The translations under genes and the position numbers were made by a program. DNA of 47,913 nucleotides from an uncultured Methanosarcinales archaeon (GTDB lineage: Archaea; Nanobdellota; Nanobdellia; Woesearchaeales; CAZZGN01), in assembly GCA_964654165.1 (NCBI GenBank), contig CAZZGN010000001.1, positions 1 through 47,913 of the forward strand, given 5' to 3'. Shown here piece after piece: positions 21,586 to 47,906 of this stretch. Every line of letters begins with the position of its first letter. Position 1 is the stretch's first letter. The notes beneath the pieces are model-generated. The model was not told the origin of the DNA. It saw only the letters and a program-made list of their open reading frames with translations, and searched no databases.

Positions 21586-21589
21586 TTTC

Positions 21590-24220: not shown

Positions 24221-24389
24221 TGAAGTTTTAACAGGATTAAAAGCCTTACCTTTAAGATTACTCTTATCAAGAGATTTACTAAGGTCAAGAAGACTAGCTT
24301 TAATAGCTTTTATTCCACCTTTACTATTATCGATTACACTAAATATAGCTTTGATTTCAGCTGTTTGACCTGAACTTATTGGTGGTATT

Positions 24390-24590: not shown

Positions 24591-24601
24591 AAGTCTTAAC
24601 C

Positions 24602-25738: not shown

Positions 25739-25756
25739 TTTATTTTTCCTTATTTA

Positions 25757-25981: not shown

Positions 25982-25982
25982 T

Positions 25983-26884: not shown

Positions 26885-26984
26885 TGCAGTTTCTCCAATG
26901 AGTTGCTGTCTACACCCCTCCAAAGAAAGGTGTTTGCTAATGCCTCCAATGAGGCAAGTATTTAAGGTTGGCTACATTTAAAAA

Positions 26985-27362: not shown

Positions 27363-28054
27363 TGTAAAACAAAACCTCCAGTATCAAGATAATTAAGTCC
27401 TATCTGCTCTGCACTTTCAAGTAATTCACCACTATTGATAAGTCTTATAATTTCTTCATATGTTTGTGACCACAATCCAAATGGACTGTTCTTACTTTGT
27501 CCACCTGCATAAGCAGTTATTGCAAAGTCACCAAGGTCTAGTTTTTGATAATCATCAGCACGAATCTTCATATACGCTAGGGACGCTGATAACGCTTTGC
27601 ACGCATCTTTTATAAGTCTATGGGGGGTAGACTCATCAAGCGGTGCCCTAGCATAAGTTATGAAGATATTTGTGGATGAAACAGGGGCGGAAGCGAGTGT
27701 GATTTTTCCATATTGCCAATCTACTGCAGAAACAACAGCCTCAGTTTTAAGTCTTGTTGATGTATCGTAAAGCCAAACCGTTACATCATTTTCATCAACA
27801 TCACCATCATTATCGTAATCTCCAATATAGTACTTATAAGAATCTTGTACATAGTAAACGGTATTAGAACCATCAATCTTATTCTCACGGTATTGGTCTA
27901 TATATAATGCTCTTTCCTCTCGTATAATCAAATTTATATCAGCGTTAAGTCTTGCTGTAGCTGATGTTATAACAGCATTCATTTGTGATGTAGTAACATC
28001 TGAACTAGTTACACCACTCATTGCAAATATTTCATTAGCTGTGCAATAAACCAT
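27359..28054 (-). CDS. gp6-like head-tail connector with Ca-binding-type insertion
   Basis: The N-terminus YCTANEIFAMSGVTSSDVTTSQMNAVITSATARLNADIN resembles Phage_connect_1. Contains a DYDNDGDVDENDV motif (27785-27820). Confidence 0.45.
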   Translation of the reverse strand: MVYCTANEIFAMSGVTSSDVTTSQMNAVITSATARLNADINLIIREERALYIDQYRENKIDGSNTVYYVQDSYKYYIGDYDNDGDVDENDVTVWLYDTSTRLKTEAVVSAVDWQYGKITLASAPVSSTNIFITYARAPLDESTPHRLIKDACKALSASLAYMKIRADDYQKLDLGDFAITAYAGGQSKNSPFGLWSQTYEEIIRLINSGELLESAEQIGLNYLDTGGFVLQ

Positions 28055-28253: not shown

Positions 28254-28619
28254 TTATTGCTTCATGGCCAAAGCTTTAAAGTTTACAATAAGTCTTGTTT
28301 CTATGGCAAATAGATGGTCAAACCATTTCTTATTCCATTCACCAAGATAATTATTATAAGTCCCTGCAACAAGAACAACAGGAACAGGTTCAAGAATAGT
28401 ACCTGCATAGAATCCAAAATGTCTTGCACCATTGGCAGTATCAACAGTAATAACATCTCCAAATTCATAGTTACCTCTAATTAATCCAGCAATATATCGC
28501 CCATCTTTATCAGCCTTCTTTTTCTCTTCAGGTGATGTTCTTAGCGTTGCCCCAGCGGAAGCCATTCTACCAGCTCGTTCGATACTGGAAATCGCTTTAA
28601 TTCCTCTATCGTCCTGCAT
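28254..28619 (-). CDS. hypothetical protein
   Basis: 121-aa track ORF. An alternative ATG lies at 28565. It overlaps the GT2 3' end. Confidence 0.45.
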   Translation of the reverse strand: MQDDRGIKAISSIERAGRMASAGATLRTSPEEKKKADKDGRYIAGLIRGNYEFGDVITVDTANGARHFGFYAGTILEPVPVVLVAGTYNNYLGEWNKKWFDHLFAIETRLIVNFKALAMKQ

Positions 28620-29275
28620 TTTGCTTTTTCATAATATATAGCCTGAACTGGATTTGCATCAAAGGTAATAGAGTCTAAATGATTGCGATACAAGTACAAT
28701 GGTAAATCAGTATAAGCAAATTTAGCTCCTGTTATAGCACATTTACAGATAAAGTCAAAGTCCATACTCGCTGGAAACTTTTCATCATAATCAATGTTTT
28801 GATATAACTCATTCTTGACAACTAAACTACCTGTTCCTACCATTGGTCTTTCTAAAAATGCTTCTAAACTAAAGTCCCTGTTTGGAGTATAAACCATCTG
28901 GTTATTTAAGGCAAGTGTATACCTAGCAGAATACCCCATATCTGCATCTGTTTCTTCCATCATCTGGCTATACATCTCCAAAGCACACGGAACTAGCATG
29001 TCATCATCATCAAAAAATTTAACAATCGGAGCAGATACTTTGTCTTTAATAAAATTCAATGCTCCTGATTTTCCCTTGGCTCCTCCATTTTCATAAACCT
29101 TAATACGCCTATCTGCGACAGTTGATAATATAAAGTTGGTATTGTCTTTACAATAATCTTGTACAATTACACATTCCCAATCATTAATGGTCTGATTCAT
29201 AATACTTGAAAGTAACCCCTTTAGAAGATGTCCACGGTCTTTAGTTGCTACTACAACTGCTATTCTTGGTGTCAT
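28541..29275 (-). CDS. family-2 (GT-A) glycosyltransferase
   Basis: IAVVVATKDRGHLLKGLLSSIMNQT...ECVIVQDYCKDNT...FFDDDDML, the classical GT2 N-terminal pattern with a DxD motif. Confidence 0.8.
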   Translation of the reverse strand: MTPRIAVVVATKDRGHLLKGLLSSIMNQTINDWECVIVQDYCKDNTNFILSTVADRRIKVYENGGAKGKSGALNFIKDKVSAPIVKFFDDDDMLVPCALEMYSQMMEETDADMGYSARYTLALNNQMVYTPNRDFSLEAFLERPMVGTGSLVVKNELYQNIDYDEKFPASMDFDFICKCAITGAKFAYTDLPLYLYRNHLDSITFDANPVQAIYYEKAKCRTIEELKRFPVSNELVEWLPLGQR

Positions 29276-29288
29276 TTTAATTCAGTAG

Positions 29289-29834
29289 TCATTGTTTTTT
29301 GAATACAATAAAATATGCACTTTTACCAGTTCTCCAAATAAGTTCTTCCTCAGTATATGTACCATGCAGAGGACCGAAGGTTCTCTGTTTTCCTGTGTTT
29401 AAAAAATAATGCCGTAAGGCATTTGGTGGATACGGCTTAATATGTGAGAAATCTGTATAGAAATGTTCATTCATCATTGGTGTTCTGATAACAATAATAC
29501 CACCTGGTTTTACTAAGAAATCCATACAAGCCATTACTTTATGTGCATCTTCAGGAACCATGTGTTCAATTACATGCGAACAATAGACCCCATCAAATGA
29601 CTGCTTATCCATATCAAGTTTAAGATTCCTTATATCTCTTCTATAAACCTTATATCCCTCATTTTTAATCTGTTTAATACTATCATAATTCCAATCAAGT
29701 CCAGTTACAGTATCTTTATTAGGAAACATTTTTAGAAATGCACCTTCACCACAACCTAAGTCTAAAACGTTATCACAATTCTTTAACAAGACATATGCCC
29801 TTTCATCAATTTGTTCACGAGTAAATTCAATCAT
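29289..29834 (-). CDS. class I SAM-dependent methyltransferase
   Basis: Motif I VLDLGCGEGAF, FDGVYCSHVIEH and VKPGGIIVIRTP. Confidence 0.8.
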   Translation of the reverse strand: MIEFTREQIDERAYVLLKNCDNVLDLGCGEGAFLKMFPNKDTVTGLDWNYDSIKQIKNEGYKVYRRDIRNLKLDMDKQSFDGVYCSHVIEHMVPEDAHKVMACMDFLVKPGGIIVIRTPMMNEHFYTDFSHIKPYPPNALRHYFLNTGKQRTFGPLHGTYTEEELIWRTGKSAYFIVFKKQ

Positions 29835-30886
29835 TCTTTATAGACCTCCTTGTACGCCTTAATCAATTGAGGTAATACCGAAGTTTCTAAATCATGTACT
29901 TTGATAGCATAATTTCTTGCTTCTTTACCTATCTCAAATCTTAATTCTGGGTCCTCTTTTAAAGCAGTAATTGTATCTTCAAGTATAACTCTATCAGATA
30001 TAACAAAAGGTAATTCCTTACCATAACGTTCTACTGCAGCATCATAATATTGTTTATTAAGATTACATATACATGGGATACCCATCGAAGCAAACTCAGC
30101 AGTATTAACTCCATAATATCCCTGAAGGTGGTCAAATCCAACGTGACATCTTTGTTTCATCCAAAGACATTCTTCCCAAGGTGTATCAGTCATGAGTATT
30201 AGTCTCATATTCCTTTTTGACTTTGAATTAAGTACTTGAACAGACTTAGCAAGATAATCAGTATCTAACTGTTTTATACTAGGATTATAATCAACCTTAC
30301 CATGTTCTTGAAATATATCTTGAACTAAATCAGTATCCTTAATCTCCCATCTATGTACTTCTCCAGGTGCATGACCAACAGCAAAATAAGGGAACTTATC
30401 TTCAATAGGAATAGGCATAAATCTCGGGTCATTAGTAGGGATTGGAAATGGAAGCCATTCAGTCCTACACACTTCATCATCTAAGTAATCAAACATAATA
30501 GGCATAGTAACAAGAGTTTTATATTTATTCTCTTCTACCTCTTTTCTTATAGGTGGGGTTCTTCTGAATACTGTACCATGAAACTGCATTATAACTTTCT
30601 TACCTTGCTTAACATACTCTCTAAAATCAACATTACCTATTCCACAAGACGGTGGCCATATGTTAAAGTGAAGAATATCAGCCCAATCACACAATGCCCT
30701 AAGTTTTGTTTCATCAAGATTAGCATCCCATAAATATTCAAAAGGATATTCTCTTGTATTGAGATGACGAATAACAGAATGAGCTTCATGTTTAGTGTTA
30801 GCATTGATGGAATCACAGAGCATCTTACTAATTCCACATGTGTCCTCAGAATTAATGTTCAGGATGTTCATAATATCATATTGCAA
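29831..30886 (-). CDS. GT-B fold glycosyltransferase (GT1/GT4-like)
   Basis: The C-terminal YGVNTAEFASMGIPCICN...ALKEDPELRFEIGKEARNYA fits the E-x7-E region of GT4-type enzymes. The track start is TTG 30886, and the first ATG is 30871. The IS hairpin begins 6 nt upstream of the TTG. Confidence 0.6.
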   Translation of the reverse strand: MQYDIMNILNINSEDTCGISKMLCDSINANTKHEAHSVIRHLNTREYPFEYLWDANLDETKLRALCDWADILHFNIWPPSCGIGNVDFREYVKQGKKVIMQFHGTVFRRTPPIRKEVEENKYKTLVTMPIMFDYLDDEVCRTEWLPFPIPTNDPRFMPIPIEDKFPYFAVGHAPGEVHRWEIKDTDLVQDIFQEHGKVDYNPSIKQLDTDYLAKSVQVLNSKSKRNMRLILMTDTPWEECLWMKQRCHVGFDHLQGYYGVNTAEFASMGIPCICNLNKQYYDAAVERYGKELPFVISDRVILEDTITALKEDPELRFEIGKEARNYAIKVHDLETSVLPQLIKAYKEVYKE

Positions 30887-30891
30887 GGAAA

Positions 30892-30912
30892 CTCACCTGC
30901 TTTAGCGGTGAG
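30892..30912 (+). repeat. IS200/IS605 subterminal hairpin (LE of element 2)
   Basis: CTCACC-TGCTTTAGC-GGTGAG, identical to the element-1 RE hairpin read in element orientation. Confidence 0.7.
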
Positions 30913-30975
30913 AGGAATTGCAATGTTGCCCTTTAATGAGTTTTTATACTTAGTATTGCTAACTAATGAATATAA

Positions 30976-32046
30976 ATGAAACGAGCTATTAAACTGGTCT
31001 TGCCCTACGACAAGCGTGTTGCCAAGACAGTTATCACCTACAACAAAGCCTGTAACTTCATTATGAAACGAGGTTACGAGCTGGGGACTTTCAACAAGCT
31101 CAAGCTCCACCATGCCACTTATAAGGAAACTCGTAAGCGGTTTCCCAATCTTACAAGTAGTCTTGTTTGTGCTGCTCGTGACCAAGCCAGTGATATGCTC
31201 AAGCGAGAAAAGCTCGAAATTCTCCCCGTCAAAAAAGAGTTCTCTTCCATCCGATACAATTTGAGAACTTTCCATCTCTACCTTGACAAAGGTATTATAA
31301 CTTTGTCCACGTTGTTTGGTCGTATCAAGCTTCCAATTACAATCCCTGCCCACTTTAAACCATATATCTCTTGGAGAATTGCAGGGACAACCCTCAGCAT
31401 CAAGAATGGTAAAATTATACTCAATCTTATTGCCGAAACTGATGACCCCGACAAGCTCGCCATCACTAAAGCAATCGGTATTGACCGAGGAATCATTAAC
31501 CCAGTCGTCACAAACGATGCTCAATTTTTTAACAGCCGAGAACTTCGTGCTGTCAAAGGTAAATATCAGTGGCTTAAATCGCAACTGCAAAGTAAAGGCA
31601 CTCGTTCCGCAAAGAGGCATCTTAAAGCTCTCAGTGGAAGAGAAAATCGGTTTGTTAGAGATGTGAACCACTGTATCAGTAAGCAAATAGCTACTAGCGA
31701 TGCTCAACTCTTCGTTCTCGAAAAGTTGCACATTAAGCGTAAAAAAAAGAATGGAAGGCGATTCAATAAGCTCTTGGGTAACTGGAGCTATATGCAATTC
31801 GAGCAGTTCCTCACCTACAAAGCTGACGCTTTGGGAAAAACTATCGAGCACATCAATCCCAAATATACCAGTCAGACTTGTAGTGCTTGCGGACAAATCC
31901 GAAAAGCTAATCGTAAAGGTGTTTGGTATTCCTGTAACAATTGCGGACAAACTATTAACTCCGACCTTAACGCTGCTAGAAACATCGTTGCTTTGAGCAA
32001 GTTCTTTAAGCAACAGGTTGCTGTCAACCAGCCAATCGTGACATGA
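30976..32046 (+). CDS. tnpB: TnpB RNA-guided endonuclease (IS605 OrfB family)
   Basis: RuvC I AIGIDRGI, RuvC II FVLEKLH, zinc finger CSACG...CNNCGQ and RuvC III NSDLNAARNI. 356 aa. It is a distinct lineage from TnpB-1. Confidence 0.85.
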   Translation: MKRAIKLVLPYDKRVAKTVITYNKACNFIMKRGYELGTFNKLKLHHATYKETRKRFPNLTSSLVCAARDQASDMLKREKLEILPVKKEFSSIRYNLRTFHLYLDKGIITLSTLFGRIKLPITIPAHFKPYISWRIAGTTLSIKNGKIILNLIAETDDPDKLAITKAIGIDRGIINPVVTNDAQFFNSRELRAVKGKYQWLKSQLQSKGTRSAKRHLKALSGRENRFVRDVNHCISKQIATSDAQLFVLEKLHIKRKKKNGRRFNKLLGNWSYMQFEQFLTYKADALGKTIEHINPKYTSQTCSACGQIRKANRKGVWYSCNNCGQTINSDLNAARNIVALSKFFKQQVAVNQPIVT

Positions 32047-32096
32047 ATTTATTTTCATAGTTACAAGCTCACCTCTTTAGGGGTGAGAAGTTGACA
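31950..32096 (+). ncRNA. predicted omega guide RNA scaffold of TnpB-2
   Basis: Inferred from the TnpB paradigm. The RE hairpin CTCACC-TCTTTAGG-GGTGAG at 32068-32087 is followed by AAGTTGACA. The extent is not verified. Confidence 0.3.
32068..32087 (+). repeat. IS200/IS605 subterminal hairpin (RE of element 2)
   Basis: Same 6-bp stem as the other two hairpins, with a different 8-nt loop. Confidence 0.65.
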
Positions 32097-32873: not shown

Positions 32874-34880
32874 TTACTGGTCAGTTACATTCAATCGGAC
32901 GATTGCATCTTTCTGGAGAACCTTTGACTCGTACTCCATATTCATGATAATCATCTTCTTGTCTTCAATTGGCCAATCAAACGCCTTGATAGAAGGCTTT
33001 TGTCCCCAAGCAATTCCACCGCAGTACTGTGACTTAACAAGCATACACTTGTGTCCATCTTCTGCACCAGCACCAAAGTTTGCATATGCAGGAGCGTTGT
33101 TTGATACAACAACCTTACATCCGAGGTACTTACCAATTTCTCCGTTCAACACAACTTCATTTCCACCGTATTCTGCGGCATTAACAAATTGGCTGTCGGT
33201 TAGTAATACTTCTTCTTGTTCAGGAGCTACGAACAACACATATGGAGAGTCGGTTGTATTCTCCCATGGATTCTTGAAATCTGTATCCTTGGTAAATGTA
33301 CCACCATCCCAGTAATAGTTGTACTTGCTTCTAAGTACACGCTTAGCTTTTGCAATCATATCTGTGGTTAGTGTATCACCAGCTCTAAGAGTTGCAAGTG
33401 ATGTTGCATCACCACCGTATACATCTGCTGTTCCAGGTACGCCAACTGCTGCGGCTGTACCAGCTGCGAGAGCTGTTGCAACTGCTGCGTCAACATCATT
33501 GGACCACTTATATGCCATTTCTTCACGTGCGTATCTCATGAGGTCGATTGCATTCGTGTTTACTGCCTTTTGGGTAATAGCTACTCTGTAGTTATACCTG
33601 GTTGGAGTAAACTGAACACCATCCATATCATCAAGTACTGTGGCTAGGACGTTAGTATCAATTGCATATTCTTCTGCTGAAGTTTCCCAGCTACTTTCAT
33701 ACTTATTCCTTATTGGCATAATGTAATCATTAACGCCTTTTGGAACTGTAGCTTGTCTTACAACATTGGAGAAGAACATTAAATTCTTACCACCATCTAC
33801 AACAGACTTAGCCCACTGAGTCGGGAGTAAGTTATATGCAGTCCTTGATGTGCCTCTAACATCGGTAACAACTGTTGCAGTTGTTGCTAAAGTAAAGGTC
33901 ATCCATGGTAAACCTGAATCTTCATCTGCTTCCAGTGAAAGTTCAAAAGTCTCACTACCTCTTCCTAGGTTTTGAAGATACTTTACCATTCCAGCATCAG
34001 TATTTAAGAAACTTCCTTGTGTATTATCTGTACCCAATTCTGATTCTTTTACAGTTTGCCTGATTGGCTCACCTAATGGAATAACTGTTGCAGGTTCTTT
34101 AACTTTTACTTCAGCCGGAGTTGCTACTTCAGTCTTTTTTTCCATATCGTCTATCTTATCCGTTACTTTTGCAAAACCTGCGGAGATAGTCTCCGAAAGC
34201 TTAGCAATGAGCTCAGCTGATTTATCAACTGTAGGCTCAATCTTAGTCTCGGGTTGCTTATCTTCAAGCTTTTCCTCGACCTTTTCCTGTGGTTTGTCTG
34301 TTTTTTCCATGTCTACCTCTTTTTCAGTAGTTTTTGGTTTCTCTTTATCAACGATAACAGGTTCTACTGTTTCTGTTGATTCCTCTTTGTCTTCTTGATT
34401 TAGAAACGTAGTCTTACATGCTGGGTCTACAACAACACTAAAGTTCTTGTATGACGCACCTTTAACAGTACCATCTACACCTTTACCTGCGAGCTTTGGA
34501 CTTACTCCAAACTTAGCTCCAAGTATGAGTTTCTTTGCATAATCCTTATCAACAAGTACCAAATCACCTATCTGGTCATCACCTGCCATCTTTGGATTAC
34601 GTACATATCCAATCCATGCAGATGTATTCTGGTCTTGATGGTCAGCAAACAATGCAAGATTAGACGTATTAGTCCAATCTGTATTATTGTATGCATTATG
34701 CATCTCTTCGGGTGAGTAATACCATTGGTTCCAAACCCCTGGTGACATAAGAATCTTATCTTTGAAAACGTAGGCTTTCATCTCCTCGCCATCAATTACA
34801 ATTTTCTCTACATCAGGGTCACCTATAGGCTGTTGGACAGAGTTACTAAACTCAGATAATTTAAAATCCATTCTAGTCAC
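32874..34880 (-). CDS. prohead protease-like / scaffold-like / HK97-fold major capsid fusion protein
   Basis: The N-terminus LALFADHQDQNTSAWIGYVRN...DDQIGDLVLVD...GAKFGVSPK fits S78/XkdF-DUF2213-like His...Ser spacing. The middle is acidic and Lys-rich (EKVEEKLEDKQPETK). The C-terminal ~330 aa are MCP-like (...GEIGKYLGCKVVVSN...). Confidence 0.7.
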   Translation of the reverse strand: MTRMDFKLSEFSNSVQQPIGDPDVEKIVIDGEEMKAYVFKDKILMSPGVWNQWYYSPEEMHNAYNNTDWTNTSNLALFADHQDQNTSAWIGYVRNPKMAGDDQIGDLVLVDKDYAKKLILGAKFGVSPKLAGKGVDGTVKGASYKNFSVVVDPACKTTFLNQEDKEESTETVEPVIVDKEKPKTTEKEVDMEKTDKPQEKVEEKLEDKQPETKIEPTVDKSAELIAKLSETISAGFAKVTDKIDDMEKKTEVATPAEVKVKEPATVIPLGEPIRQTVKESELGTDNTQGSFLNTDAGMVKYLQNLGRGSETFELSLEADEDSGLPWMTFTLATTATVVTDVRGTSRTAYNLLPTQWAKSVVDGGKNLMFFSNVVRQATVPKGVNDYIMPIRNKYESSWETSAEEYAIDTNVLATVLDDMDGVQFTPTRYNYRVAITQKAVNTNAIDLMRYAREEMAYKWSNDVDAAVATALAAGTAAAVGVPGTADVYGGDATSLATLRAGDTLTTDMIAKAKRVLRSKYNYYWDGGTFTKDTDFKNPWENTTDSPYVLFVAPEQEEVLLTDSQFVNAAEYGGNEVVLNGEIGKYLGCKVVVSNNAPAYANFGAGAEDGHKCMLVKSQYCGGIAWGQKPSIKAFDWPIEDKKMIIMNMEYESKVLQKDAIVRLNVTDQ

Positions 34881-34934: not shown

Positions 34935-36344
34935 TCACACATATCCTAATACCTTTTGATATTGGTATACAGTCCTGCCAGAACATCCAACAGTCTCTGC
35001 AATCAGGCTTCGTTCTTTTTTGGCTTTAGTAAGTTCTATTATGCTATCTATTTGTTCATTAGATAAGTCGTGTCCACTCTTTCTGTTTACTTCGGTTACA
35101 TTAGCTTTCCATGTATTGCCTTCAAGTTTAAGCTGGAATACATCTTTCATCTTAGCACCCATAAATCTTAGAACCTTATGAGTAGGTGTATTCTCATAAA
35201 CTATACAATTACCCCAATCAATAGCATTTGCAAAGCGAGGACCTTCATCAGATAAAGTCAATATTCCTACTTTACAAGCATCTATAGAAACATCTACTTT
35301 ACTCTTTTTCATTAGAAACTCAACACGAGGTACTGTAAACTCTGTAAAATTAGTACCTGTCTTTAGTTTCATGTTAAGTGAACCATTAACATATAAGTGA
35401 TATTGTTCTTCTTCACGAGGAATCCATTCTTTGAGTACAGTATAAGTTGCATTGGGTATATCTGTTAAAGGCATATACAAACGTCCTTCACTCATATCAT
35501 TGATAAGAGTACGTTTGGTTCCATTACAAATTGAGGGGTCTTCATGTTTCCAATACATACGATTATTAGGTATATATTTACGTATTTTACGGGGTAAACA
35601 GGATAAATTATAGGATACGGTGAAATCATTTTTGAGTGACTCATATGAAAGTACATAAGGTATAGGATTTGTAAATGAACTTGAATATGAACAAGTCCAA
35701 TCATAACTTAACTTATTATTTGATAAGGATTCTACTCGATTTATTGAAAGTACACCATCAATACTTGAACCATGTAAGAATATCTCAACTACAGAATCAG
35801 ATAGTCCTGTGTCTTTAATTGCACCGTATTCTACAAGACCACAATCAATTTGCTTTTGTATAAATTCTCCTGCAGGACGTTCAAACTTAACATCTATATT
35901 ATTTGTAACTCCATTCCTTTGTAATGAATTAGCCCACCTAATATTATTATCTAAGTCCTCTGCAATTTCAATAGCATCAACAGATATGTCTACTTGTGAA
36001 GATTTAGGCATTATATATATTGTCTTTGATGAATTGTTTGTTTCACAAGTCAATTCAAAGAAATGGTCTTGTCCTTGATAACAACTATTAAGACCAAAAC
36101 GATACATCTTATCTTCACTACGTTCAAATTCAATACCTTGTACATCGGTTTCTTTCTTAAGTTTTGAAATTATCTCATCAGCTTCAGTTCTATATTCAGC
36201 TAATTCAGCTTCAATGCCTTCTTTCATCTTAGCTGTATCCTTCAAATTCTCTTGTAAAGCTAACTCAGTAACAGCTATCTTTTCACGTAACTCATTGTGA
36301 CGTTCCTTAGCTTTTGTAAGAGTTTTAGGGTTGTTTGATGTCAT
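34935..36344 (-). CDS. hypothetical 469-aa protein, N-terminal coiled coil and C-terminal HTH
   Basis: The N-terminal 70 aa are helical and charged. The C-terminus ERSLIAETVGCSGRTVYQYQKVLGYV is a resolvase/sigma-r4-type HTH. Confidence 0.5.
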   Translation of the reverse strand: MTSNNPKTLTKAKERHNELREKIAVTELALQENLKDTAKMKEGIEAELAEYRTEADEIISKLKKETDVQGIEFERSEDKMYRFGLNSCYQGQDHFFELTCETNNSSKTIYIMPKSSQVDISVDAIEIAEDLDNNIRWANSLQRNGVTNNIDVKFERPAGEFIQKQIDCGLVEYGAIKDTGLSDSVVEIFLHGSSIDGVLSINRVESLSNNKLSYDWTCSYSSSFTNPIPYVLSYESLKNDFTVSYNLSCLPRKIRKYIPNNRMYWKHEDPSICNGTKRTLINDMSEGRLYMPLTDIPNATYTVLKEWIPREEEQYHLYVNGSLNMKLKTGTNFTEFTVPRVEFLMKKSKVDVSIDACKVGILTLSDEGPRFANAIDWGNCIVYENTPTHKVLRFMGAKMKDVFQLKLEGNTWKANVTEVNRKSGHDLSNEQIDSIIELTKAKKERSLIAETVGCSGRTVYQYQKVLGYV

Positions 36345-38298
36345 TTTTTAAAGTTGTATTCCATAGATGATTACTGTATACTATCCCTTCGACTTTATTT
36401 TTATGTCCTCTAAAGAAGACAGGTAAGAATGTGTATGCGGGTAATATTTTCTTAGTATCTTTGATTACTACAGGCATAAGTCCTGGTCCTGAACATTTAT
36501 GAGATGGGTATAGTTCAGTTAAAGCACCATGCATATTAATAAGATTATCTATTATATGATGATTAGATACAGCTCCTATTGGAGAATTAGCTATCCTTTT
36601 AGTACCATCAACAACATTAACAGCAAAGAAATCCTGCTTCATAAATGGAGCGCCCTTTAAAGTATGTAAACATTCAGAATCAGCATCAATATATATTCCC
36701 CCATATTTCTTTAATATTTCTACTCTTGCTATATTAGCTGCACCATTGTAACATTTCTTTTTATAATAATCATCATAAACTTTTCTATTGACTAAACCAA
36801 GCTCATCAATTGCTTTCTCATCCCAAAACATGAATCCAAATTCTGGATTCATTTTCTTCCAAGTGTTCAATAATTTTGTAGGCTTCTTTTCTGGACCAAT
36901 CCATATCTGATGTATTATTGGTGGTATGCTGTTCAATCGCCCATACCAAAGCTTTGCCTTTCCACTATCTATCCAATCATAGGTATAACCATCAAAGCCT
37001 GCTGCATAACGGGGTCTTTCTGCATCATGTAAAAAGACAATTCCATTAGGCTTTAGAAGTTCCTTTGCTTTCTTAAGACAATTAACTCTGTTTCTACCAT
37101 CCACATATATAACATCATACTTCTTTTTAGGTGGGATGAGATAATCAGCAGAGTTTTGAGTAGCATATTTAAGAGTTACATCCTTTACATTCCAAGTCAA
37201 TATTTCATCATACCAACCTTTATTATGCTCAATAGAATCCCATGTGTAATCTATTCCTTCTTGTTCCAGCATCTTTGGAAAGTATTTAGTACTATATCCT
37301 GCACCCCATTCTAAGACATCTACTTTTTTGTATTCCTTTAATATATTCTCAAAGAAAATCTTAGGCTCATCTAATAAATCCATAGGATGTTCAGCTTTTG
37401 AGACAGTCGCTAAATCAACTGGTTTTTTCTTAGGTGCTCTAACAAATAATACATGTCTATTATCACATAACTCAGAAGCTTTAACCCAAAACGCACTATT
37501 ATTAGAACCTGTTATCTCAGACATAAATACCATCGCTTCTTTGAAATTTGCATTAATTCTAAGAGCTTCTAATGTACTTTCCTGAGCTTCTCTTAGATTT
37601 CCTAATTTATGATTAGCTCTAGCCTTTTGTAGATTAGCTTCAGCCATCTCACCAGCGAAATGGGCTTGTTGTAAGTATATATCATACCAAGTAATTGCCA
37701 TCTTCCATTGCTTACGATACATATACTCACGAGCTAAGTAAAATATTTCTCTTGGACCTACACCTTTAGCTACTTCTTTTTGTAATATTCTAAGAGCTCT
37801 ATCAGGGTCCTTACTATGAGCAGGAGAATAACCAAATACTATTTTTGCTCCTGAAGCAGTATCAGCAAGTACATTAAGATGATTATGTATTGCACCTTTC
37901 CAAAGTATTTTAGGACTATTTTTATAAACACGGGGAAACTCAAATGATTGTGCCGTAGATGTCATCACAACACTTACTGCATTCTTTGCAGTCTTAATTG
38001 CTTTTCTTATTGCTTCAAGACCACCAGGTTGTAGTTCTTCATCAGCATCAATAGTTAAAATCCAATCAGTATCCGCCTTAGACTTCGCAAAGTTACGGGC
38101 TTCAGCAAAGTTATCATTCCACACATATTCGTCTTCAATTACATTGGATGTGTACGTCTTGGCTATCTCAATTGTTTTGTCTGTTGAACCAGTATCAACA
38201 ATAAATATTTTATCAATACCTTCAAGTGAAGACAAGCATTTATCCAACATTGCTTCTTCATTTTTAACTATTAATACGGCTCCAAGAGATGTCATCAT
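36325..38298 (-). CDS. four-module enzyme: GT2 - TPR - class I SAM-MTase - GT32-like glycosyltransferase
   Basis: GT2: LIVKNEEAMLDKCLSSL...IVDTGSTDKT...ILTIDADEEL. TPR-like: YLQQAHFAGEMAEANLQKARANHKLGNLREAQES. MTase: VDVLEWGAGYSTKYF...YDVIYVDGRNR...LKPNGIVFLHD. GT32-like: IIHQIWIGPEKKP...GGIYIDADSE. Confidence 0.75.
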   Translation of the reverse strand: MMTSLGAVLIVKNEEAMLDKCLSSLEGIDKIFIVDTGSTDKTIEIAKTYTSNVIEDEYVWNDNFAEARNFAKSKADTDWILTIDADEELQPGGLEAIRKAIKTAKNAVSVVMTSTAQSFEFPRVYKNSPKILWKGAIHNHLNVLADTASGAKIVFGYSPAHSKDPDRALRILQKEVAKGVGPREIFYLAREYMYRKQWKMAITWYDIYLQQAHFAGEMAEANLQKARANHKLGNLREAQESTLEALRINANFKEAMVFMSEITGSNNSAFWVKASELCDNRHVLFVRAPKKKPVDLATVSKAEHPMDLLDEPKIFFENILKEYKKVDVLEWGAGYSTKYFPKMLEQEGIDYTWDSIEHNKGWYDEILTWNVKDVTLKYATQNSADYLIPPKKKYDVIYVDGRNRVNCLKKAKELLKPNGIVFLHDAERPRYAAGFDGYTYDWIDSGKAKLWYGRLNSIPPIIHQIWIGPEKKPTKLLNTWKKMNPEFGFMFWDEKAIDELGLVNRKVYDDYYKKKCYNGAANIARVEILKKYGGIYIDADSECLHTLKGAPFMKQDFFAVNVVDGTKRIANSPIGAVSNHHIIDNLINMHGALTELYPSHKCSGPGLMPVVIKDTKKILPAYTFLPVFFRGHKNKVEGIVYSNHLWNTTLKNDIKQP

Positions 38299-38315
38299 AC
38301 ATCAAGTAAATATAC

Positions 38316-38501
38316 TTAAACTTTAGTTTTAGCTGCAAAACCAGCAGCTGCTATCTTTGCTTTTGCTTTTAACTTGGTATGTTCCTCAGCATATTCCTCT
38401 ACCGTGAGTAAGCCAATGTCTTTTAATCGCTTAATTGAATTTGCGGCTTTCTCAATTTCCCATAATTCCTGTAATTCAGAAGATGTTTGTATTTCAGCCA
38501 T
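38316..38501 (-). CDS. SHOCT-like small protein
   Basis: IKRLKDIGLLTVEEYAEEHTKLKAK resembles the SHOCT motif (L-x-x-L-x-x-G-hP-hP-T-x-E-E-F/Y). Confidence 0.4.
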   Translation of the reverse strand: MAEIQTSSELQELWEIEKAANSIKRLKDIGLLTVEEYAEEHTKLKAKAKIAAAGFAAKTKV

Positions 38502-38538
38502 TTTTTAATATTTGTATATAATTATATTGTTATTGTAT

Positions 38539-39213
38539 TTAATTACGAGAGAGGCACAATACATCTTCACCTCTACTGTCAAGTATCCAAATATTTTTTC
38601 CGTCAAAATTTCCAGTTTTTCTATCGTAATTTCCATCAAAACAATGTCCTCGAGGTAAGTCAGTAATTCCACTTAAACTTAGAGTTTGAATTTTGTTCCC
38701 GTCATAATCTATCTGAATGACTCTATCCACATCTTGTGTTGCCACCCATAAATTATGCCCATCAAAAGCAACCCCTCTAACCTTATTAGCTATTGTAGAA
38801 GTGTCTAATGTCTTGATTACTTGTCCTTCTTTATTCATAAAGGATAAATCAAGGGCAGTAGAACCAAATACAGCAATAATCTTTCCGTCTGTTGCCATAT
38901 ATTGAGGGTCTACTATAATTGTACCAGATATATCAATGGTTTCAATTGCTACAAATTCTGAATTATAATGATTCAAAGTTCCATCAGCCTTAGAAACTGC
39001 CCAAAAATCTTTCCCATCAAAACAAAGTCCATCAACATCAGTCTGTGAACCTGTTACATCATAAGTATCAATTAATTCCCCCTTACGACTTACCTTAAAA
39101 ATAGTATCTGCTTGAGCCCCATAAAAATATAAATAATCACCATCAAATGCCATTGATATAGCACCTGTTTCTATACCGCTTATATCAAAATGAGTAATTT
39201 CTTTAAGTGCCAT
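38539..39213 (-). CDS. six-bladed beta-propeller repeat protein (NHL/YVTN-like)
   Basis: Six spaced FDG/TDG repeats: AFDGDYLYF, CFDGKDFWAV, ATDGKIIAV, AFDGHNLWVA, CFDGNYD, NFDGKNIWIL. Confidence 0.55.
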   Translation of the reverse strand: MALKEITHFDISGIETGAISMAFDGDYLYFYGAQADTIFKVSRKGELIDTYDVTGSQTDVDGLCFDGKDFWAVSKADGTLNHYNSEFVAIETIDISGTIIVDPQYMATDGKIIAVFGSTALDLSFMNKEGQVIKTLDTSTIANKVRGVAFDGHNLWVATQDVDRVIQIDYDGNKIQTLSLSGITDLPRGHCFDGNYDRKTGNFDGKNIWILDSRGEDVLCLSRN

Positions 39214-39593
39214 TAGTACCCCCTCGTTATGCCTATAAAACGAACACTTATAGCAAAATAATTAGAAGCGTCTGCACCTGTTGCCGTAACTTTAATAGCT
39301 GTGTAATCCCCACAATCAGGAACTTTAATAGTTTCTGCTTTAGTGCCTGATGCATTAGAGTAACGCAAATCACCTAATGGACCATCCATGACTTTGTGTG
39401 TTGGTGATGCACTCATTCCCGTTAATACTTCAACTATTACGTCCGTGGGGGCTAATGTGTTTGCCACATCAATTTCAATGTAACCATAATCAAAGTCTGA
39501 AGTATCAATATCGGCTGACGTGTATGTCATCGGGCTGCCGTCTAGTTGAACCGCATCAACTGCAAGAGTTCCTGATTTAGTTGTTGCTGTCAT
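39213..39593 (-). CDS. stand-alone paralogue of the collagen-like protein C-terminal globular domain
   Basis: The 126 aa align end to end with aa ~680-805 of the upstream protein (IDTSDFDYGYIEIDV / [15 protein letters not shown]; [23 protein letters not shown] in both; ...RFIGITRGY / ...RFIGVTSGY). Confidence 0.65.
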   Translation of the reverse strand: MTATTKSGTLAVDAVQLDGSPMTYTSADIDTSDFDYGYIEIDVANTLAPTDVIVEVLTGMSASPTHKVMDGPLGDLRYSNASGTKAETIKVPDCGDYTAIKVTATGADASNYFAISVRFIGITRGY

Positions 39594-39595
39594 TA

Positions 39596-42009
<2,414 letters not shown>

Positions 42010-42013
<4 letters not shown>

Positions 42014-42381
42014 TCTGTTATGTCCGTAGTTACTTCACCAGTTATCACAAAATCATCAACGGTAAATGTTGTAACAAGTTCTCCAGCAGTTACTAATTGT
42101 ACATCATAATAATAATATGCAGGTACAATAGCTGTATCAGCATGTGTTAAAATAAATGTAGTAATACCTGCTGTTGGGTCAGTATGGTCACCAGGTCCAT
42201 TAATCTTTTGTATCAATGCACCAGAATCTAAAGAACCAGCAGCTGTACTACTTGCTGTAGTTTTTACAGTAAAAAAGATAGTTGATGTGGTTATATTAAC
42301 AGCATCACCATCCTCGTCAGTAATAGTAAACCTTAATGATGCATCATCACCTCTATATATGATTAGTTTATTTCTTCCCAT
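42010..42381 (-). CDS. Ig-like / BppU-N-like small structural protein
   Basis: [35 protein letters not shown]...YYYDVQL...FVITGEV. This pattern is common in phage fibre-associated Ig-like domains. ATGA overlap with the collagen-like gene. Confidence 0.4.
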
Positions 42382-43744
42382 CTTTAGTCATATCTTTAGT
42401 ATTCTCATCTTCTGGATTATTATCCAATGCTTTTGTATTAGCAGTAGCAATCTTTTGTGCTTCTTTCTTCACTTTAGCTTCTAAACCAGGTGGTTCAGCA
42501 GGAAGATTCTCCATCTTACGTATAATCTGTCTTATATTAATATCAGATAACAACAATCCTGAATTAGTATAATCAACAAGTCTTGATGTCTTTGAATCAA
42601 GATATTCAATGCTTGGTGGGTCAAATTCAAGTAATGGATTACTAGCTAAATTATAATCAGAAACTAAACGTGGGAATATCTGACTCTCTACAGAATAAGA
42701 AATATTCTTTTGCATCTCCATAATATTCCTTTCATATCCAAGGTTAAGTCCTTTAAATGTACTTCTCGGTGTTTGGTCACCAGAACCTACAATATATGGT
42801 TTTGGAACACCTGTAGCAGCTGATACCTTATCTACATAATAAGATAAGTGAGGTTCCAAGGAAGGAATATTAGCAGAAACATAAGCAACCTTATCGGGAT
42901 AAGGAATTGATAAAACAGATTGAGATGTTGCACTCCTAAGCAATTCAGTCATCTTTTGTATGTTAGTCTTATTAGCCTTGTGCATATCATCGCCAACAGT
43001 ACCAACTAATAATGGACTTGTAGCTTTTTTCATAGCAATACCCCAGTCCTTTTCAATTTGAATCTTAGCCATCAATGCATTCCACATAGGCTCAATCAAA
43101 CCAATACCATTTAATGAATCACCTACAGTCCAAATAGTAAAGTGAGCAATCTCATCAGTTTCAAATCTGATACCAGTACCTGAACTCATTTCAAACTGTG
43201 GAGAACTATGTTCAACTAATCTATCCTCCTTTGAATTAGGAACTGTCGCCCCCATAGGCAATACTTGAACATAATACTCAGGATTATTATAACTATCATA
43301 TTTTATTCTACCTGAAGAATCCCGTGAGAAATCCATAACCTTTGGGTCAACATGGTCAAACGCAACTAACTTTCCATTGTTATTAGCTACAAGCTCAACC
43401 CAAGCATTACCATAAATACAACAATGAAGAACAATCTTACGAAGGATAATATCAAAACGAGTATTTTTAAGGAACTCATCCATCCACCTTTTAGTCTTTT
43501 CATCCTCTGTTTCGATATAATAATTAGAAGACATAAAAGTTTTTACTATATGATTAATAGCTGCAAACGTATCAGCATCCCTTCGATATAACTTTTCAAG
43601 AGTTAAAAAATCAACAGGGTCACTTATTGCATCAATACTCCTCTCACTAATGGGTTTAGAGTCTTCAGGAAGAGTTGCACCTTCAACATTAATAAATTCC
43701 TGTTGCTTATTAGAAAATCCAGGAATATTCTCATACCATGCCAT
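42368..43744 (-). CDS. portal protein
   Basis: About 458 aa and the next large gene after terL. The ATG at 43744 (MAWYENIPG) lies 11 nt after AAGGTGG. The track's GTG at 43759 lies inside that SD. The C-terminal tail is acidic/basic. Confidence 0.7.
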   Translation of the reverse strand: MAWYENIPGFSNKQQEFINVEGATLPEDSKPISERSIDAISDPVDFLTLEKLYRRDADTFAAINHIVKTFMSSNYYIETEDEKTKRWMDEFLKNTRFDIILRKIVLHCCIYGNAWVELVANNNGKLVAFDHVDPKVMDFSRDSSGRIKYDSYNNPEYYVQVLPMGATVPNSKEDRLVEHSSPQFEMSSGTGIRFETDEIAHFTIWTVGDSLNGIGLIEPMWNALMAKIQIEKDWGIAMKKATSPLLVGTVGDDMHKANKTNIQKMTELLRSATSQSVLSIPYPDKVAYVSANIPSLEPHLSYYVDKVSAATGVPKPYIVGSGDQTPRSTFKGLNLGYERNIMEMQKNISYSVESQIFPRLVSDYNLASNPLLEFDPPSIEYLDSKTSRLVDYTNSGLLLSDINIRQIIRKMENLPAEPPGLEAKVKKEAQKIATANTKALDNNPEDENTKDMTKDGKK

Positions 43745-43967
43745 TAATAGTTTATCCACCTTACATTTAAAAACAGAAAAGCCGACTCGCTTTTATATAG
43801 TAACACTTTTAAATACCTCACTCCGTTCGGTAAAAGGATAATAAGACGGTGTTAATGTGTGTTTGTAAAAACGAAATGTGTTTGGGTACGTACGTTTTGG
43901 TGTGGATATTATAATATTATAATAAAAAATAAATAATATAATATTGGAATAAGGTATAGGGGTATAA

Positions 43968-45485
43968 TTACCACCCTTTAGGTGGTCTTGTCAGTTCCAA
44001 TGGATTTGCATCTTCTCTGGTATATTCAATAGAAGTTTGGTCTTCATTACGGAAATCAACCGCACCCTCCATGTATTCACAAGCAGGACCGTATTCTGTA
44101 GCACCTATAGCTGAGAGTGCAAAACTCATAACACTATCATCGTGCTTACCAATTGATTTGTAAGTACGCATTCCTGTGGGTGTAGTATCAAATATTATCT
44201 TTTGTAACTCGTCAGTTAGGTTCGCTGTCTCTGCAATGCAGTCTGAATTCTCCTTGTTTCGTGGTATAACGACTTTATTACCCTCTAATAGCCTCATAAG
44301 ATTATCTAATATCTTGTTTCGATTGTCGGGAGTGAACTTAAACGGCTCTGCAGGGATGCCCATTTCTCGTAAATCAGAGACAAAGATTTCTCCAAAGACT
44401 GATTTATCAACAATTACTCTTGTTGGTTTGAAATCAGCATACAATTGTCGAATCATATTTTCTTGGTCTTTGTAATGGATACCACGTACTCTTTGTATCT
44501 TTCTGATATACAATTTCTCTCCAATTAATTCTGTTACAGTATATACACTGTAGTCTCCATGTGGAGACATAGCTAAGTCAATTCCAATGAAGTATGTACC
44601 CCATGTTGTTTCACCATCTGTAGTCTTATATTCTTGTCCTACATTTCTAAAGGTTTCATCTCGATTATAAGAACGTACAATATCAGCTAACTTAAATGGC
44701 ATGATACCTTCATCGACACGTTCACATAAGTATTCTCGTCTGAATGTAATTATACCTATCTCTGCTTTTATCATATCCAGCTTATTCTTATCAAATCTAG
44801 ATGGCCACATACTGGTTTGTTCTTCCTCATTCCACATAGCATAAGTTAAAGCATGATAGCCACGTTGAGGTTCACTAAGAGTGCTAAGTAAGTCTGTTTC
44901 TGTTTTGGGTGTACCGATTACCATGATGTGACCGTTCTTGTGGTTAACGGTTGGTACTATACCGTCAAAGAAAAGGTTAGTATCACGGTTGTCGATTTCT
45001 CCACCTTCGTCTAACAACGCATAGTTAACGTGTTGACCACGAATACCTTTCCCAGTATAAGCTCGGACAACGATTTGGCATCCCGTCTTTGTTTTTAGTT
45101 CAGATGTAGACCAAGATGTACTTTTTCCTGCAGGGGTAAGTAAGGCATCGAGTAACTCATTTTCTTCAATAGCGTTACGTATTTCCTTTACTATGTCTTT
45201 TGCTTTGTCTTTACTTGCAGCTACTATCAAGAATCGTTGGTCTGACTTAAAGATACTTATCCATATAGGAAAAGCTACTCCCAGCTGGAATGTTTTACCA
45301 CTACCACGGGGAGCTGTTATGCATGTTCTGCGTTTGCTTAAGAAACATTCTATCCAATATTGATGGTAAGGCATAATTTCTAAGCCCATCACAGATTCTG
45401 CGAAGAACTTAAAGTCCATCCTACATTTAATTAAGAATGAACCAAAGTCATCCTCAGCACCCATTATTTCTTTTAATGTTCTCAT
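43968..45485 (-). CDS. terL: terminase large subunit
   Basis: Walker A TAPRGSGKTF and Walker B NYALLDEGGE. The C-terminal nuclease-like part has IGIDLAMS...HDDSVMSF. 505 aa. Confidence 0.9.
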   Translation of the reverse strand: MRTLKEIMGAEDDFGSFLIKCRMDFKFFAESVMGLEIMPYHQYWIECFLSKRRTCITAPRGSGKTFQLGVAFPIWISIFKSDQRFLIVAASKDKAKDIVKEIRNAIEENELLDALLTPAGKSTSWSTSELKTKTGCQIVVRAYTGKGIRGQHVNYALLDEGGEIDNRDTNLFFDGIVPTVNHKNGHIMVIGTPKTETDLLSTLSEPQRGYHALTYAMWNEEEQTSMWPSRFDKNKLDMIKAEIGIITFRREYLCERVDEGIMPFKLADIVRSYNRDETFRNVGQEYKTTDGETTWGTYFIGIDLAMSPHGDYSVYTVTELIGEKLYIRKIQRVRGIHYKDQENMIRQLYADFKPTRVIVDKSVFGEIFVSDLREMGIPAEPFKFTPDNRNKILDNLMRLLEGNKVVIPRNKENSDCIAETANLTDELQKIIFDTTPTGMRTYKSIGKHDDSVMSFALSAIGATEYGPACEYMEGAVDFRNEDQTSIEYTREDANPLELTRPPKGW

Positions 45486-47300: not shown

Positions 47301-47906
47301 TTAGTTTTTCCCACCAATTACTAGTATCCTCTCAAAAGGAACAGCATCTTCAATTGGAAACTTCTTCATAACCACTGGTTTGAATTTCTTTAGCTTAGTT
47401 AATATTTCTTTTTCAGTAAATGCATGTGGTTCTGTTACTCTTGCTTCAGGTTGTAAGTTAAGATTAAATCTTATTTCCCCACCAGGCTTAAGTATTCTCC
47501 ACAATTCATCTAATGTTTGTTCTAAATTATCAACATGGTCTAAGGAATTTACAGACAAAATAACATCTACTGTTTTATCTAACAAAGGTATCTCTTCACA
47601 ACCACTTGCAAGATATATCATATCCTGTTTGCCACCCATCTTAAACAAATAATCATAAGCTTTAGCTAAAGGTTCAACACCATATTTAGTCTTTGCTTCA
47701 AAGTTATGTAATGTACCTCTAGGCCCACATCCAACATCCATAATCACTTTTCCTTTGTATGTATCTTTCTGTATCTGTAACATCTTACAATACCTCTTTG
47801 TAATCATTTCAAAATTACGGTCACTAAAATATGCTCCTCTCTTTTCTTCACAGTAAACTCTAGTCCAATAAGAAATCTCTGCCAACTCTTTAATGTCTGT
47901 TATCAT
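47301..47906 (-). CDS. class I SAM-dependent methyltransferase
   Basis: Motif I VIMDVGCGPRG, VDVILSVNSLDHV and LKPGGEIRF. 201 aa. Confidence 0.75.
   Translation of the reverse strand: MITDIKELAEISYWTRVYCEEKRGAYFSDRNFEMITKRYCKMLQIQKDTYKGKVIMDVGCGPRGTLHNFEAKTKYGVEPLAKAYDYLFKMGGKQDMIYLASGCEEIPLLDKTVDVILSVNSLDHVDNLEQTLDELWRILKPGGEIRFNLNLQPEARVTEPHAFTEKEILTKLKKFKPVVMKKFPIEDAVPFERILVIGGKN

Follow-up and report, generated by a model that had tools for sequence, protein, structure and literature searches.

Our analysis concerns a 47,913-nt stretch of assembled DNA (contig CAZZGN010000001.1; hereafter, the window), in which a very divergent tailed virus carries, between its portal and capsid genes, a gene for an 805-aa protein made largely of collagen-type G-X-Thr triplets and, three small genes further on, a gene for a 657-aa enzyme combining two putative glycosyltransferase domains with tetratricopeptide repeats (TPR) and a methyltransferase fold. 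With moderate confidence, we interpret the 805-aa protein as a trimeric virion fibre of collagen type, and the 657-aa enzyme as the dedicated enzyme modifying it. The core of this idea, a G-X-Thr collagen fibre served by a dedicated protein glycosyltransferase, had been put forward in a first-pass annotation of the same DNA, and is supported here by the relatives of the GT2-TPR half of the enzyme, by the precedent of SgtA from C. difficile, which acts on the collagen-like protein BclA3 (PMC7157674), and by a recurrent pairing of enzyme and collagen genes across loci.

The 657-aa enzyme

Pfam searches revealed two glycosyltransferase signatures in the 657-aa enzyme, one of family GT2 (PF00535, E 6e-20) and one of the GT32-type family Gly_transf_sug (PF04488, E 1.8e-10; 41.8 bits vs. 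a cut-off of 23). An AlphaFold model built on an alignment of 25 homologues resolves four domains with high confidence (mean predicted local distance difference test, pLDDT, of 87.1), bearing out the four-module architecture (GT2, TPR, methyltransferase and GT32) that had been proposed from the sequence. In this model, the methyltransferase domain shows alternating strands and helices (aa 325-454) and a terminal hairpin, all at a pLDDT of ~90. The assignment of this domain as a methyltransferase draws on the predicted fold and on a glycine-rich motif, the similarity by sequence alone being weak. The 25 full-length homologues (43-56% identity, aligned end to end) share the invariant motifs DTGSxD, DADE, EWGxGxST, DGRNR, HDAxR, IHQIW and GGxYxDAD, which suggests that selection acts on each of the three catalytic modules.

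Profile searches against PDB matched the GT2 part of the enzyme to GmaR (E 1.8e-44) and to SunS and ThuS (~1e-24), the middle part to OGT-type and consensus TPRs (TPR families of Pfam are also recorded on homologues of the enzyme), and the GT32 part to SetA (9e-12), YeGT, PaTox and TcdA/B. The Foldseek search with the model placed ThuS/SunS on top (4e-16), with YeGT/PaToxG (6e-8) and class I O- and N-methyltransferases (~1e-6) among the further matches. For both glycosyltransferase domains, the nearest characterized relatives act on proteins or peptides, and not on DNA, nucleotides or the cell wall; those of the GT32 part are toxins that glycosylate proteins. Based on fold, motifs, profile similarity and gene context, the N-terminal half of the enzyme is a predicted member of the GT2-TPR group of protein glycosyltransferases. 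It is not a SunS equivalog, as its score with the respective NCBIfam model (39.8 bits) is far under the cut-off of 350. Many of the shorter homologues represent fusions of GT2-TPR with other class I methyltransferase families, and methylation appears to be a recurrent companion of this type of glycosyltransferase.

The only matches to the enzyme in cultured phages are partial (25-37% identity; jumbo Erwinia and Dickeya phages and Listeria fragments), and in BFVD the uncharacterized multi-domain relatives are confined to uncultured phages, one Synechococcus phage and giant viruses. With nothing close in cultured phages, the genes described here do not represent a common, already annotated tail-fibre cassette of known phages.

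Pairing of the enzyme with collagen-like genes

Full-length homologues of the enzyme are found in unrelated phage settings, each with a G-X-Thr collagen open reading frame (ORF) within a few kb. These settings include a position after the capsid gene in a phage with an SU10/P22-type portal (locus L004), the end of a replication module with PolA, primase and helicase genes (L005 and L006, the collagen ORF being a few kb away) and contigs binned with a Kiritimatiellia metagenome-assembled genome (L007 and L008). An alignment scan of IMG/VR yielded 269 relatives (80 loci were fetched), and a scan of species genomes yielded 24 further ones. Among the latter are homologues with 23-28% identity in Clostridia and other Bacillota, located directly downstream of long G-X-Thr ORFs, an arrangement like that of SgtA and BclA.

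Dereplication at 80% enzyme identity resulted in 69 clusters, in which an ORF was counted as a collagen partner if it had a minimum of 20 triplets with a G-X-Thr share of 30% or more. Such an ORF is present in 40 of the 69 clusters, and in 25 of the 69 it lies within 500 nt of the enzyme gene, mostly on the same strand. Within 2.5 kb of the enzyme gene, collagen ORFs occur at a density of 1.26 per 10 kb, which drops to 0.28 at 5-7.5 kb and to 0 at 7.5-10 kb. Overall, 39 near-gene collagen ORFs were observed vs. 5.2 expected (Poisson p ~3e-21), with a background estimated from the far flanks of the same loci rather than from random viral DNA. In a few loci (L005, L006 and L009) the enzyme gene and the collagen ORF are assigned to different strands, a provisional call since the GGT-NNN-ACC repeats can be read both ways. 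The terminal domains of the collagen partners are diverse (a Phage Tail Collar domain, C1q-looking tips, and a domain shared with gp82 and, weakly, with cement proteins), which suggests that the enzyme goes with the collagen repeat and not with a particular type of fibre.

The gp82-shared domain is found at the end of collagen partners in five loci (L027, L032, L045, L070 and L078). It spans ~150 aa and carries the motif DDVIQPVG...FNPSM; its matches are gp82, a neck-fibre protein from cyanophage A-1(L) (8keg, E 1.8e-6), and, weakly, Phage_cement_2. These partners may be neck- or capsid-anchored collagen fibres.

The pairing does not extend to the remaining genes of the portal-capsid interval. 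The first-pass annotation had described all seven genes as a self-contained module and had pointed to synteny in related contigs as a check. The enzyme-collagen pair does recur there, but the other five genes (encoding the Ig-like, 126-aa, propeller, 61-aa and 469-aa proteins) do not accompany it and have no detectable relatives in the 80+ other enzyme loci, which led us to reject the seven-gene module. The nearest relative of the virus (L001, capsid 44% identical) has a terminase, a portal, a 70-aa ORF, an 1185-aa protein and a capsid in the corresponding region, with no cassette, which is therefore accessory. Conversely, L121 encodes, between MuF and the S78 protease/cement/capsid genes, a protein with the C-terminal domain of the fibre and, after it, a repeat protein with weak similarity to the propeller (E 0.003), and this head block contains neither a collagen gene nor a 657-aa-type enzyme. 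The window thus combines three separable pieces: an adaptor and fibre pair, a C-terminal-domain and propeller pair, and the enzyme-collagen pair. The C-terminal-domain and propeller pair is seen in a head-gene block in L121 as well as here, whereas among the enzyme loci only the enzyme-collagen pair travels together.

The collagen-like protein and the copy of its C-terminal domain

The 805-aa protein contains 190 G-X-Y triplets (counted in runs of at least 4) arranged in 13 runs of 5-40 triplets. Thr fills the Y position of 135 triplets (71%), and the X position of 130 is taken by Pro, Ser or Ala, in agreement with its initial description as a collagen-like protein of mostly G-X-T triplets. 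The number of triplets is approximate, since every independent assembly of this virus is interrupted within the collagen gene, and the protein collection has no entry with the exact 805-aa sequence. A 20-aa N-terminal segment, in which reading by eye revealed no signal peptide or membrane anchor, precedes the G-X-Y runs, which are separated by short STVT-type breaks. They are also interrupted by a 51-residue CBM5/12-like insert (aa 254-304; CBM_5_12 20.6 bits, below the cut-off) that recurs in other such collagen proteins. The protein ends in an all-beta globular domain of 125 residues (aa 681-805). No exosporium-targeting motif was seen in it, and the Pfam scan gave no BclA_C match.

The possibility that the G-X-Thr ORF of the window is an antisense artefact was considered and rejected, as the plus-strand shadow ORFs read PVGPV, and it is the minus-strand ORF that has the conserved C-terminal domain and the coupling to its neighbors. 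These shadow ORFs are long (40095-41978, plus strand; PVGPV repeats, up to 184 aa). The coding of G-X-Thr as GGT-NNN-ACC is its own reverse complement, which can produce collagen-like ORFs on both strands and mislead gene callers.

The stand-alone copy of the C-terminal domain, already recognized at first pass, is confirmed: the 126-aa protein and the fibre C-terminus share 87 of 124 residues (E 2e-59). At the DNA level the two are 71% identical, their codons differing synonymously in 39 cases and non-synonymously in 37, and the copy appears to be old and maintained. In the sister virus L123, the window order is kept (collagen gene, then the orthologue of the 126-aa paralogue, 87% identical, then a repeat protein), and the collagen protein has the same C-terminal domain. 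In both viruses, each copy of this domain is closer to its own orthologue than to its paralogue. The collagen protein of L123 (L123 3-3835) exceeds 1087 aa, with 236 triplets; besides the CBM5/12-like insert, which it shares with the 805-aa protein, it contains an additional globular insert of ~200 aa. Collagen length is thus plastic within a conserved order of three genes. The family of the C-terminal domain includes 77 remote relatives, in which the domain always either stands alone (117-157 aa) or forms the very C-terminal end of proteins whose lengths vary widely.

Proposed mechanism

According to the proposed mechanism, the inverting GT2 domain (SgtA/GmaR/SunS-like) would transfer the first sugar from a nucleotide-sugar onto the hydroxyls of Y-position Thr in the ~135 G-X-Thr triplets, as suggested by homology, gene pairing and the SgtA precedent. 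The TPR domain would hold the repetitive acceptor chain, consistent with the general role of TPRs in such enzymes and, again, with SgtA. From the domain content we further infer that the GT32-like retaining domain may add another sugar and that the class I methyltransferase may cap the glycan. Other potential contributors are an additional GT2, two further methyltransferases, a 351-aa protein and a hexapeptide acyltransferase encoded just past the window (see below). The resulting dense coat of Thr-linked O-glycans would stabilize and shield a collagen helix that lacks hydroxyproline, and would give the particle a "nap" like that of the spore exosporium. Glycosylated Thr at the Y position is known to stabilize hydroxyproline-free collagen helices, as in worm cuticle collagen; with this type of stabilization, the glycan would be structural as well as shielding or adhesive. 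The small BppU_N-like Ig protein, encoded just upstream of the fibre, is probably the adaptor that holds it, and the jelly-roll-like C-terminal domain of the fibre, its stand-alone paralogue and the propeller would represent a separate conserved trio. For the site of attachment, we weakly favor the head or neck over the tail, for the reasons given below.

Alternative explanations

A number of observations weigh against this interpretation. Glycosylation, methylation and presence in the virion are all deduced from sequence, predicted folds and gene pairing. The methyltransferase module remains below threshold with Methyltransf_24 (23.8 bits vs. a cut-off of 26.3) and has no strong match by sequence in PDB (the best being 3cvo, E 0.005). 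The PDB coverage of GT32-like folds is biased to toxins, making the acceptor argument weaker for this domain, and enzymes of the GT32 family often act on glycans or lipids. The model of the fibre C-terminal domain is of low confidence (pLDDT 57.6, from only three input sequences): it has 8 strands and a jelly-roll look, its Foldseek matches are many generic jelly rolls (TM ~0.5), with no specific indication of the C1q/TNF-like fold envisaged at first pass, and a PDB search with a 21-sequence profile of the domain returned nothing meaningful. Adaptors of BppU_N type are baseplate parts in lactococcal phages, and one Ig-like homologue is encoded in a tail-tip module. Finally, a collagen ORF is missing from the available DNA of 29 of the 69 enzyme clusters (many of these contigs are short, 4-5 kb, with flanks missing), and the enzyme family may have other acceptors besides collagen.

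The most serious alternative, although we consider it rather unlikely, is that the fibre belongs to the tail or baseplate as a receptor-binding or side fibre docked via the BppU_N-like adaptor, in which case the enzyme would still glycosylate it. This would be consistent with the match of the Ig-like homologues to BppU_N and with the location of one of them (in L119 and L120) in a tail-tip module after Dit, where the next gene encodes an 836-aa tail-tip fibre that resembles the N-terminus of the collagen protein in its first 22 residues. The collagen protein also matches many PHROG "tail fiber" families, though via its repeats, and the Phage Tail Collar domain mentioned above terminates one of the collagen partners. 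However, the Ig-like homologue in L117 and L118 directly follows a portal gene, and the gene context as a whole would weakly favor an attachment of the fibre at the head or neck. This is because the collagen gene is located in the portal-capsid interval, with the tape-measure and distal tail genes over 15 kb away; because the same C-terminal-domain and propeller pair is present in the head block of L121 (in L123, too, these genes are in a head-gene block); because SPP1 gp12 provides a precedent of a collagen-like capsid protein (PMC6316719); and because some collagen partners elsewhere end in the gp82-type domain common to neck-fibre and cement proteins.

A different acceptor for the enzyme, either another virion protein (capsid or tail tube) or a glycan of the host envelope, appears improbable. 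Under this explanation, enzyme and collagen genes would be neighbors as inhabitants of shared variable structural regions of the genome. Glycosylation of capsid and tail-tube subunits by phage glycosyltransferases is reported for mycobacteriophages (as summarized in PMC12619734), and the capsid gene of the window is flanked on both sides by glycosyltransferase and methyltransferase genes. The enzyme clusters without a collagen ORF, and the two loci in which the enzyme gene ends a replication module (L005 and L006), also fit this view. At the same time, the frequent adjacency of the two genes and its sharp fall-off with distance argue for a specific connection with collagen; even L005 and L006 have a G-X-Thr collagen ORF a few kb off; the partners are rich in Thr at the exact position that SgtA modifies; and the clostridial pairing corresponds to an experimentally shown enzyme-substrate pair (PMC7157674).

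Very improbable, finally, is a collagen protein made as an infected-cell product (a moron-encoded host surface adhesin or matrix component) and modified there by the enzyme, since, despite the accessory nature of the cassette and the mostly surface location of bacterial collagen-like proteins in general, its N-terminus has no apparent signal peptide or anchor, its gene is translationally coupled within the late structural operon, and partners elsewhere carry typical phage fibre domains.

Genomic setting and neighboring genes

The genes in question are part of one long minus-strand late operon with the order large terminase, portal, seven ORFs and a 668-aa capsid ORF (Table 1). All seven ORFs that had been listed between the portal and capsid genes are present on the minus strand at their listed positions. 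From the portal through the Ig-like, collagen and 126-aa genes to the propeller gene, neighbors overlap or almost touch, with ATGA and TAATG junctions, as would be expected for co-translated partners. Thus, the stop codon of the Ig-like gene overlaps the start codon of the collagen gene (ATGA), and the start of the propeller gene, which keeps its place in L123, overlaps the stop of the 126-aa gene. The G+C content is ~35% across the region, rising to 51% only over the collagen gene.

Table 1. Features of the late operon considered in this study, with domain boundaries of the 657-aa enzyme
Feature	Position	Strand	Evidence or remark
Large terminase	43968-45485		Part of the minus-strand late operon
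Portal protein	42368..43759	-	Portal_Mu E 8.8e-12; phrog_12 E 6e-15; flanking landmark
123-aa Ig-like (BppU_N-like) protein	42010..42381	-	phrog_1084 E 2e-14
805-aa collagen-like protein (putative fibre)	39596..42013	-	Pfam Collagen (PF01391) E 2.6e-70
126-aa stand-alone paralogue of the fibre C-terminal domain	39213..39593	-	70% aa identity
224-aa FDG-repeat protein	38539..39213	-	Repeats; sub-threshold propeller matches
61-aa helical peptide	38316..38501	-	ORF only
657-aa four-module enzyme	36325..38298	-	Pfam, PHROG, PDB profile, AlphaFold, Foldseek
Module 1, GT-A domain (GT2)	aa 1-165
Module 2, TPR helices	aa 167-275
Disordered linker	aa 276-309
Module 3, class I methyltransferase fold	aa 310-455		Seven-stranded Rossmann with terminal hairpin
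Module 4, second GT-A domain (GT32-like)	aa 460-650
469-aa protein with C-terminal helix-turn-helix (HTH)	34935..36344	-	HTH_7 E 3.9e-4
Prohead protease, scaffold-like linker and HK97-type major capsid protein in one 668-aa ORF	32874..34880	-	Flanking landmark
Second cluster of candidate sugar-modifying genes: 351-aa protein, 181-aa S-adenosylmethionine (SAM) methyltransferase, 244-aa GT2	28541..30886	-	Pfam on public contig, NCBIfam

The ORF initially read as the capsid gene does encode an HK97-type capsid protein (PHROG major head protein, E 2e-15; N4-gp56-type capsid, E 3e-15), but it also contains a prohead protease and a charged scaffold-like linker, and its halves match the separate, adjacent protease and capsid genes of the Altiarchaeum virus BK059162. 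This fusion accounts for the lack of a protease or scaffold gene of its own in the portal-capsid interval. The same protease-capsid fusion is observed in the relative L001 (789 aa; L001 9932-12301).

Among the neighbors of the enzyme and collagen genes, the 123-aa protein has no Pfam match of its own, while its homologues P0217 and P0219 (~40% identity) weakly match the Ig-like domain BppU_N (PF10651), in line with its original designation as Ig-like (Ig, immunoglobulin); in cultured phages this protein has no match. In L117 and L118, where the Ig-like gene comes after a portal-MuF gene, a large cluster of GT47/RXYLT1-like, GT1-like and methyltransferase genes with a Mom-like gene is located upstream of the packaging genes. 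The 224-aa FDG-repeat protein is probably a beta-propeller (phrog_8401 "beta-propeller repeat", E 3e-4; NHL, SGL and WD40 matches all sub-threshold), whereas the six blades originally ascribed to it are not established, its sequence containing five repeats of 42-43 aa and two short extra DG motifs. The role as a lectin suggested for it at first pass is conjectural. Likewise, the SHOCT-like label of the 61-aa peptide could not be sustained (PF09851, E 0.064; 13.5 bits vs. a cut-off of 27).

The 469-aa protein had been listed as unknown; its ORF is present as described, but a C-terminal HTH can be recognized in it. Its last 43 aa (34935-35063) are 42% identical to the end of the 1185-aa protein of L001 (L001 9753-9881), the rest being unrelated; the latter protein combines a metallo-beta-lactamase (MBL) fold with an ATP-dependent ligase-like part and is encoded directly upstream of the capsid gene. 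We have rejected the 469-aa protein as a member of the cassette, as only the HTH is common with the same-position gene of the cassette-free L001. It is probably a lineage-typical gene upstream of the capsid rather than a part of the fibre.

The second cluster of candidate sugar-modifying genes is located just downstream of the capsid block and may contribute to the same glycan as the 657-aa enzyme; the family search with its 351-aa protein gave no match. Additional genes of this kind encode a 201-aa methyltransferase at the window end (47301-47906, minus strand) and, just past it, a hexapeptide-repeat acyltransferase that is present in a public contig of this virus (L113 2363-2842). The window also contains two TnpB genes (IS200/IS605-type RNA-guided nuclease) at 30976-32046 (plus strand) and 11089-12174 (minus strand). 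The former (NCBIfam guided_TnpB, E 4.6e-48) runs antisense to the late operon and separates the capsid block from the sugar-gene cluster downstream; public gene calls have in its place a 396-aa shadow ORF of the other strand (30868-32058). The entire tail block (16891-28054) and most other window proteins have no Pfam match, and the early region includes a KaiC/RadA-like ATPase and an N6/N4 DNA methylase (2190-3023 and 9963-11027, both on the plus strand). A scan of the window for tRNAs found none.

The divergence of this virus is reflected in its terminase large subunit (TerL), which is at most 25% identical to any protein of cultured phages, and in its capsid protein, which matches only an Altiarchaeum virus among annotated viruses and has no match in 185,579 species genomes. 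The Altiarchaeum match provides a hint that the host may be archaeal.

Significance

In a broader and more tentative generalization, which we regard as possible but somewhat less than even in its chances, SgtA-like GT2-TPR enzymes and G-X-Thr fibres would constitute a widespread system of virion O-glycosylation in uncultured tailed viruses, with the window as its most elaborate version (a head or neck "nap" with a methyl-capped oligosaccharide made by a single four-domain enzyme). The logic of collagen-Thr O-glycosylation, collagen-like phage proteins and virion glycosylation are all already known; what is new is the combination of a collagen fibre with a glycosyltransferase in viruses, its breadth, and the four-domain enzyme. 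Glycosylated phage particles have so far come from a few mycobacteriophages, with the sugars on the tails of capsid and tail-tube proteins. If the proposed interpretation is true, many environmental viruses bear thread-like collagen fibres with hundreds of Thr-linked sugars, and use the same enzyme-substrate logic as the exosporium hairs of spore-formers.

This interpretation also provides some phage "glycosyltransferase" genes, usually ascribed to DNA or host-surface modification, with a concrete candidate role in the modification of virion proteins. It would further imply that a single polypeptide can start, extend and methylate a protein-linked glycan, an attractive feature for glyco-engineering of collagen-like materials, and it makes testable the question of how a hydroxyproline-free collagen helix is stabilized in viruses. 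Potential consequences concern the adhesion of phage particles to surfaces, hosts and mucus, and their evasion of proteases or immune recognition.

Comparison with known systems

A literature search for phage collagen combined with glycosyltransferase or TPR found no paper describing this pairing, and the closest known systems each have a part of it. In Mimivirus, L230 hydroxylates Lys and glucosylates hydroxylysine of collagen-like proteins (PMC9614988), so that one virus encodes both collagen-like proteins and their glycosylating enzyme, as proposed here. The Mimivirus system differs by its animal-type chemistry, with an unrelated enzyme and no Thr glycosylation, in a giant virus of eukaryotes. 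In mycobacteriophages, capsid and tail-tube subunits are reported to carry glycans from phage glycosyltransferases (as summarized in PMC12619734). The likeness to the window consists in phage glycosyltransferase genes near structural genes and in glycosylated virion proteins, whereas the acceptors are C-terminal extensions of capsid and tail-tube subunits and not collagen repeats.

With respect to the fibre, SPP1 gp12 is a collagen-like, capsid-decorating trimer whose gene is located between the scaffold and major capsid genes (PMC6316719). It is thus similar to the 805-aa protein in being encoded inside a head module, and different in its size (64 aa, with few triplets) and in having no associated glycosyltransferase and no reported glycosylation. 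To our knowledge, gp12 is not rich in G-X-Thr either. The gp82-gp81-gp80 assembly of cyanophage A-1(L) is a trimeric neck fibre related through gp82 to collagen partners in other loci, not to the fibre of the window, and it has no collagen region and no reported glycosylation.

With respect to the enzyme, Listeria GmaR and Bacillus SunS/ThuS are the best matches of its N-terminal half among solved structures. The acceptor of GmaR is Ser/Thr of flagellin, while that of SunS and ThuS is Cys of a small peptide, and none of the three has the fused methyltransferase and GT32 domains of the window enzyme.

The closest parallels are found in spore-formers. BclA of Bacillus anthracis resembles the 805-aa protein in its G-X-Thr filament, which has a short anchor at the N-terminus and a globular domain at the other end, and is reportedly O-glycosylated with oligosaccharides that include a methylated sugar. 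The fibre of the window differs from it by the absence of a Pfam BclA_C match and of a seen exosporium-targeting motif, and by belonging to a virus rather than a spore. In C. difficile, the sgtA gene is immediately upstream of bclA3, SgtA consists of a GT-A/WcaA-type domain (aa 1-255) and four TPR repeats (aa 262-358), and the recombinant enzyme transfers beta-O-GlcNAc from UDP-GlcNAc onto Thr (and Ser) of BclA3 collagen-repeat peptides (PMC7157674). Judged by this published domain description, SgtA has the layout of the first 275 residues of the 657-aa enzyme. The window pair differs in being viral and located in a block of virion genes; its enzyme is only 23-28% identical to clostridial homologues and adds a methyltransferase and a second, GT32-like domain; and the terminal domains of its fibre are unrelated to BclA by sequence. 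In both cases, the enzyme gene lies next to or near a G-X-Thr-rich collagen gene. While not a member of the BclA family (no BclA_C match, no spore), the system of the window would, by its gene and domain content, work like SgtA/BclA3 and BclA.

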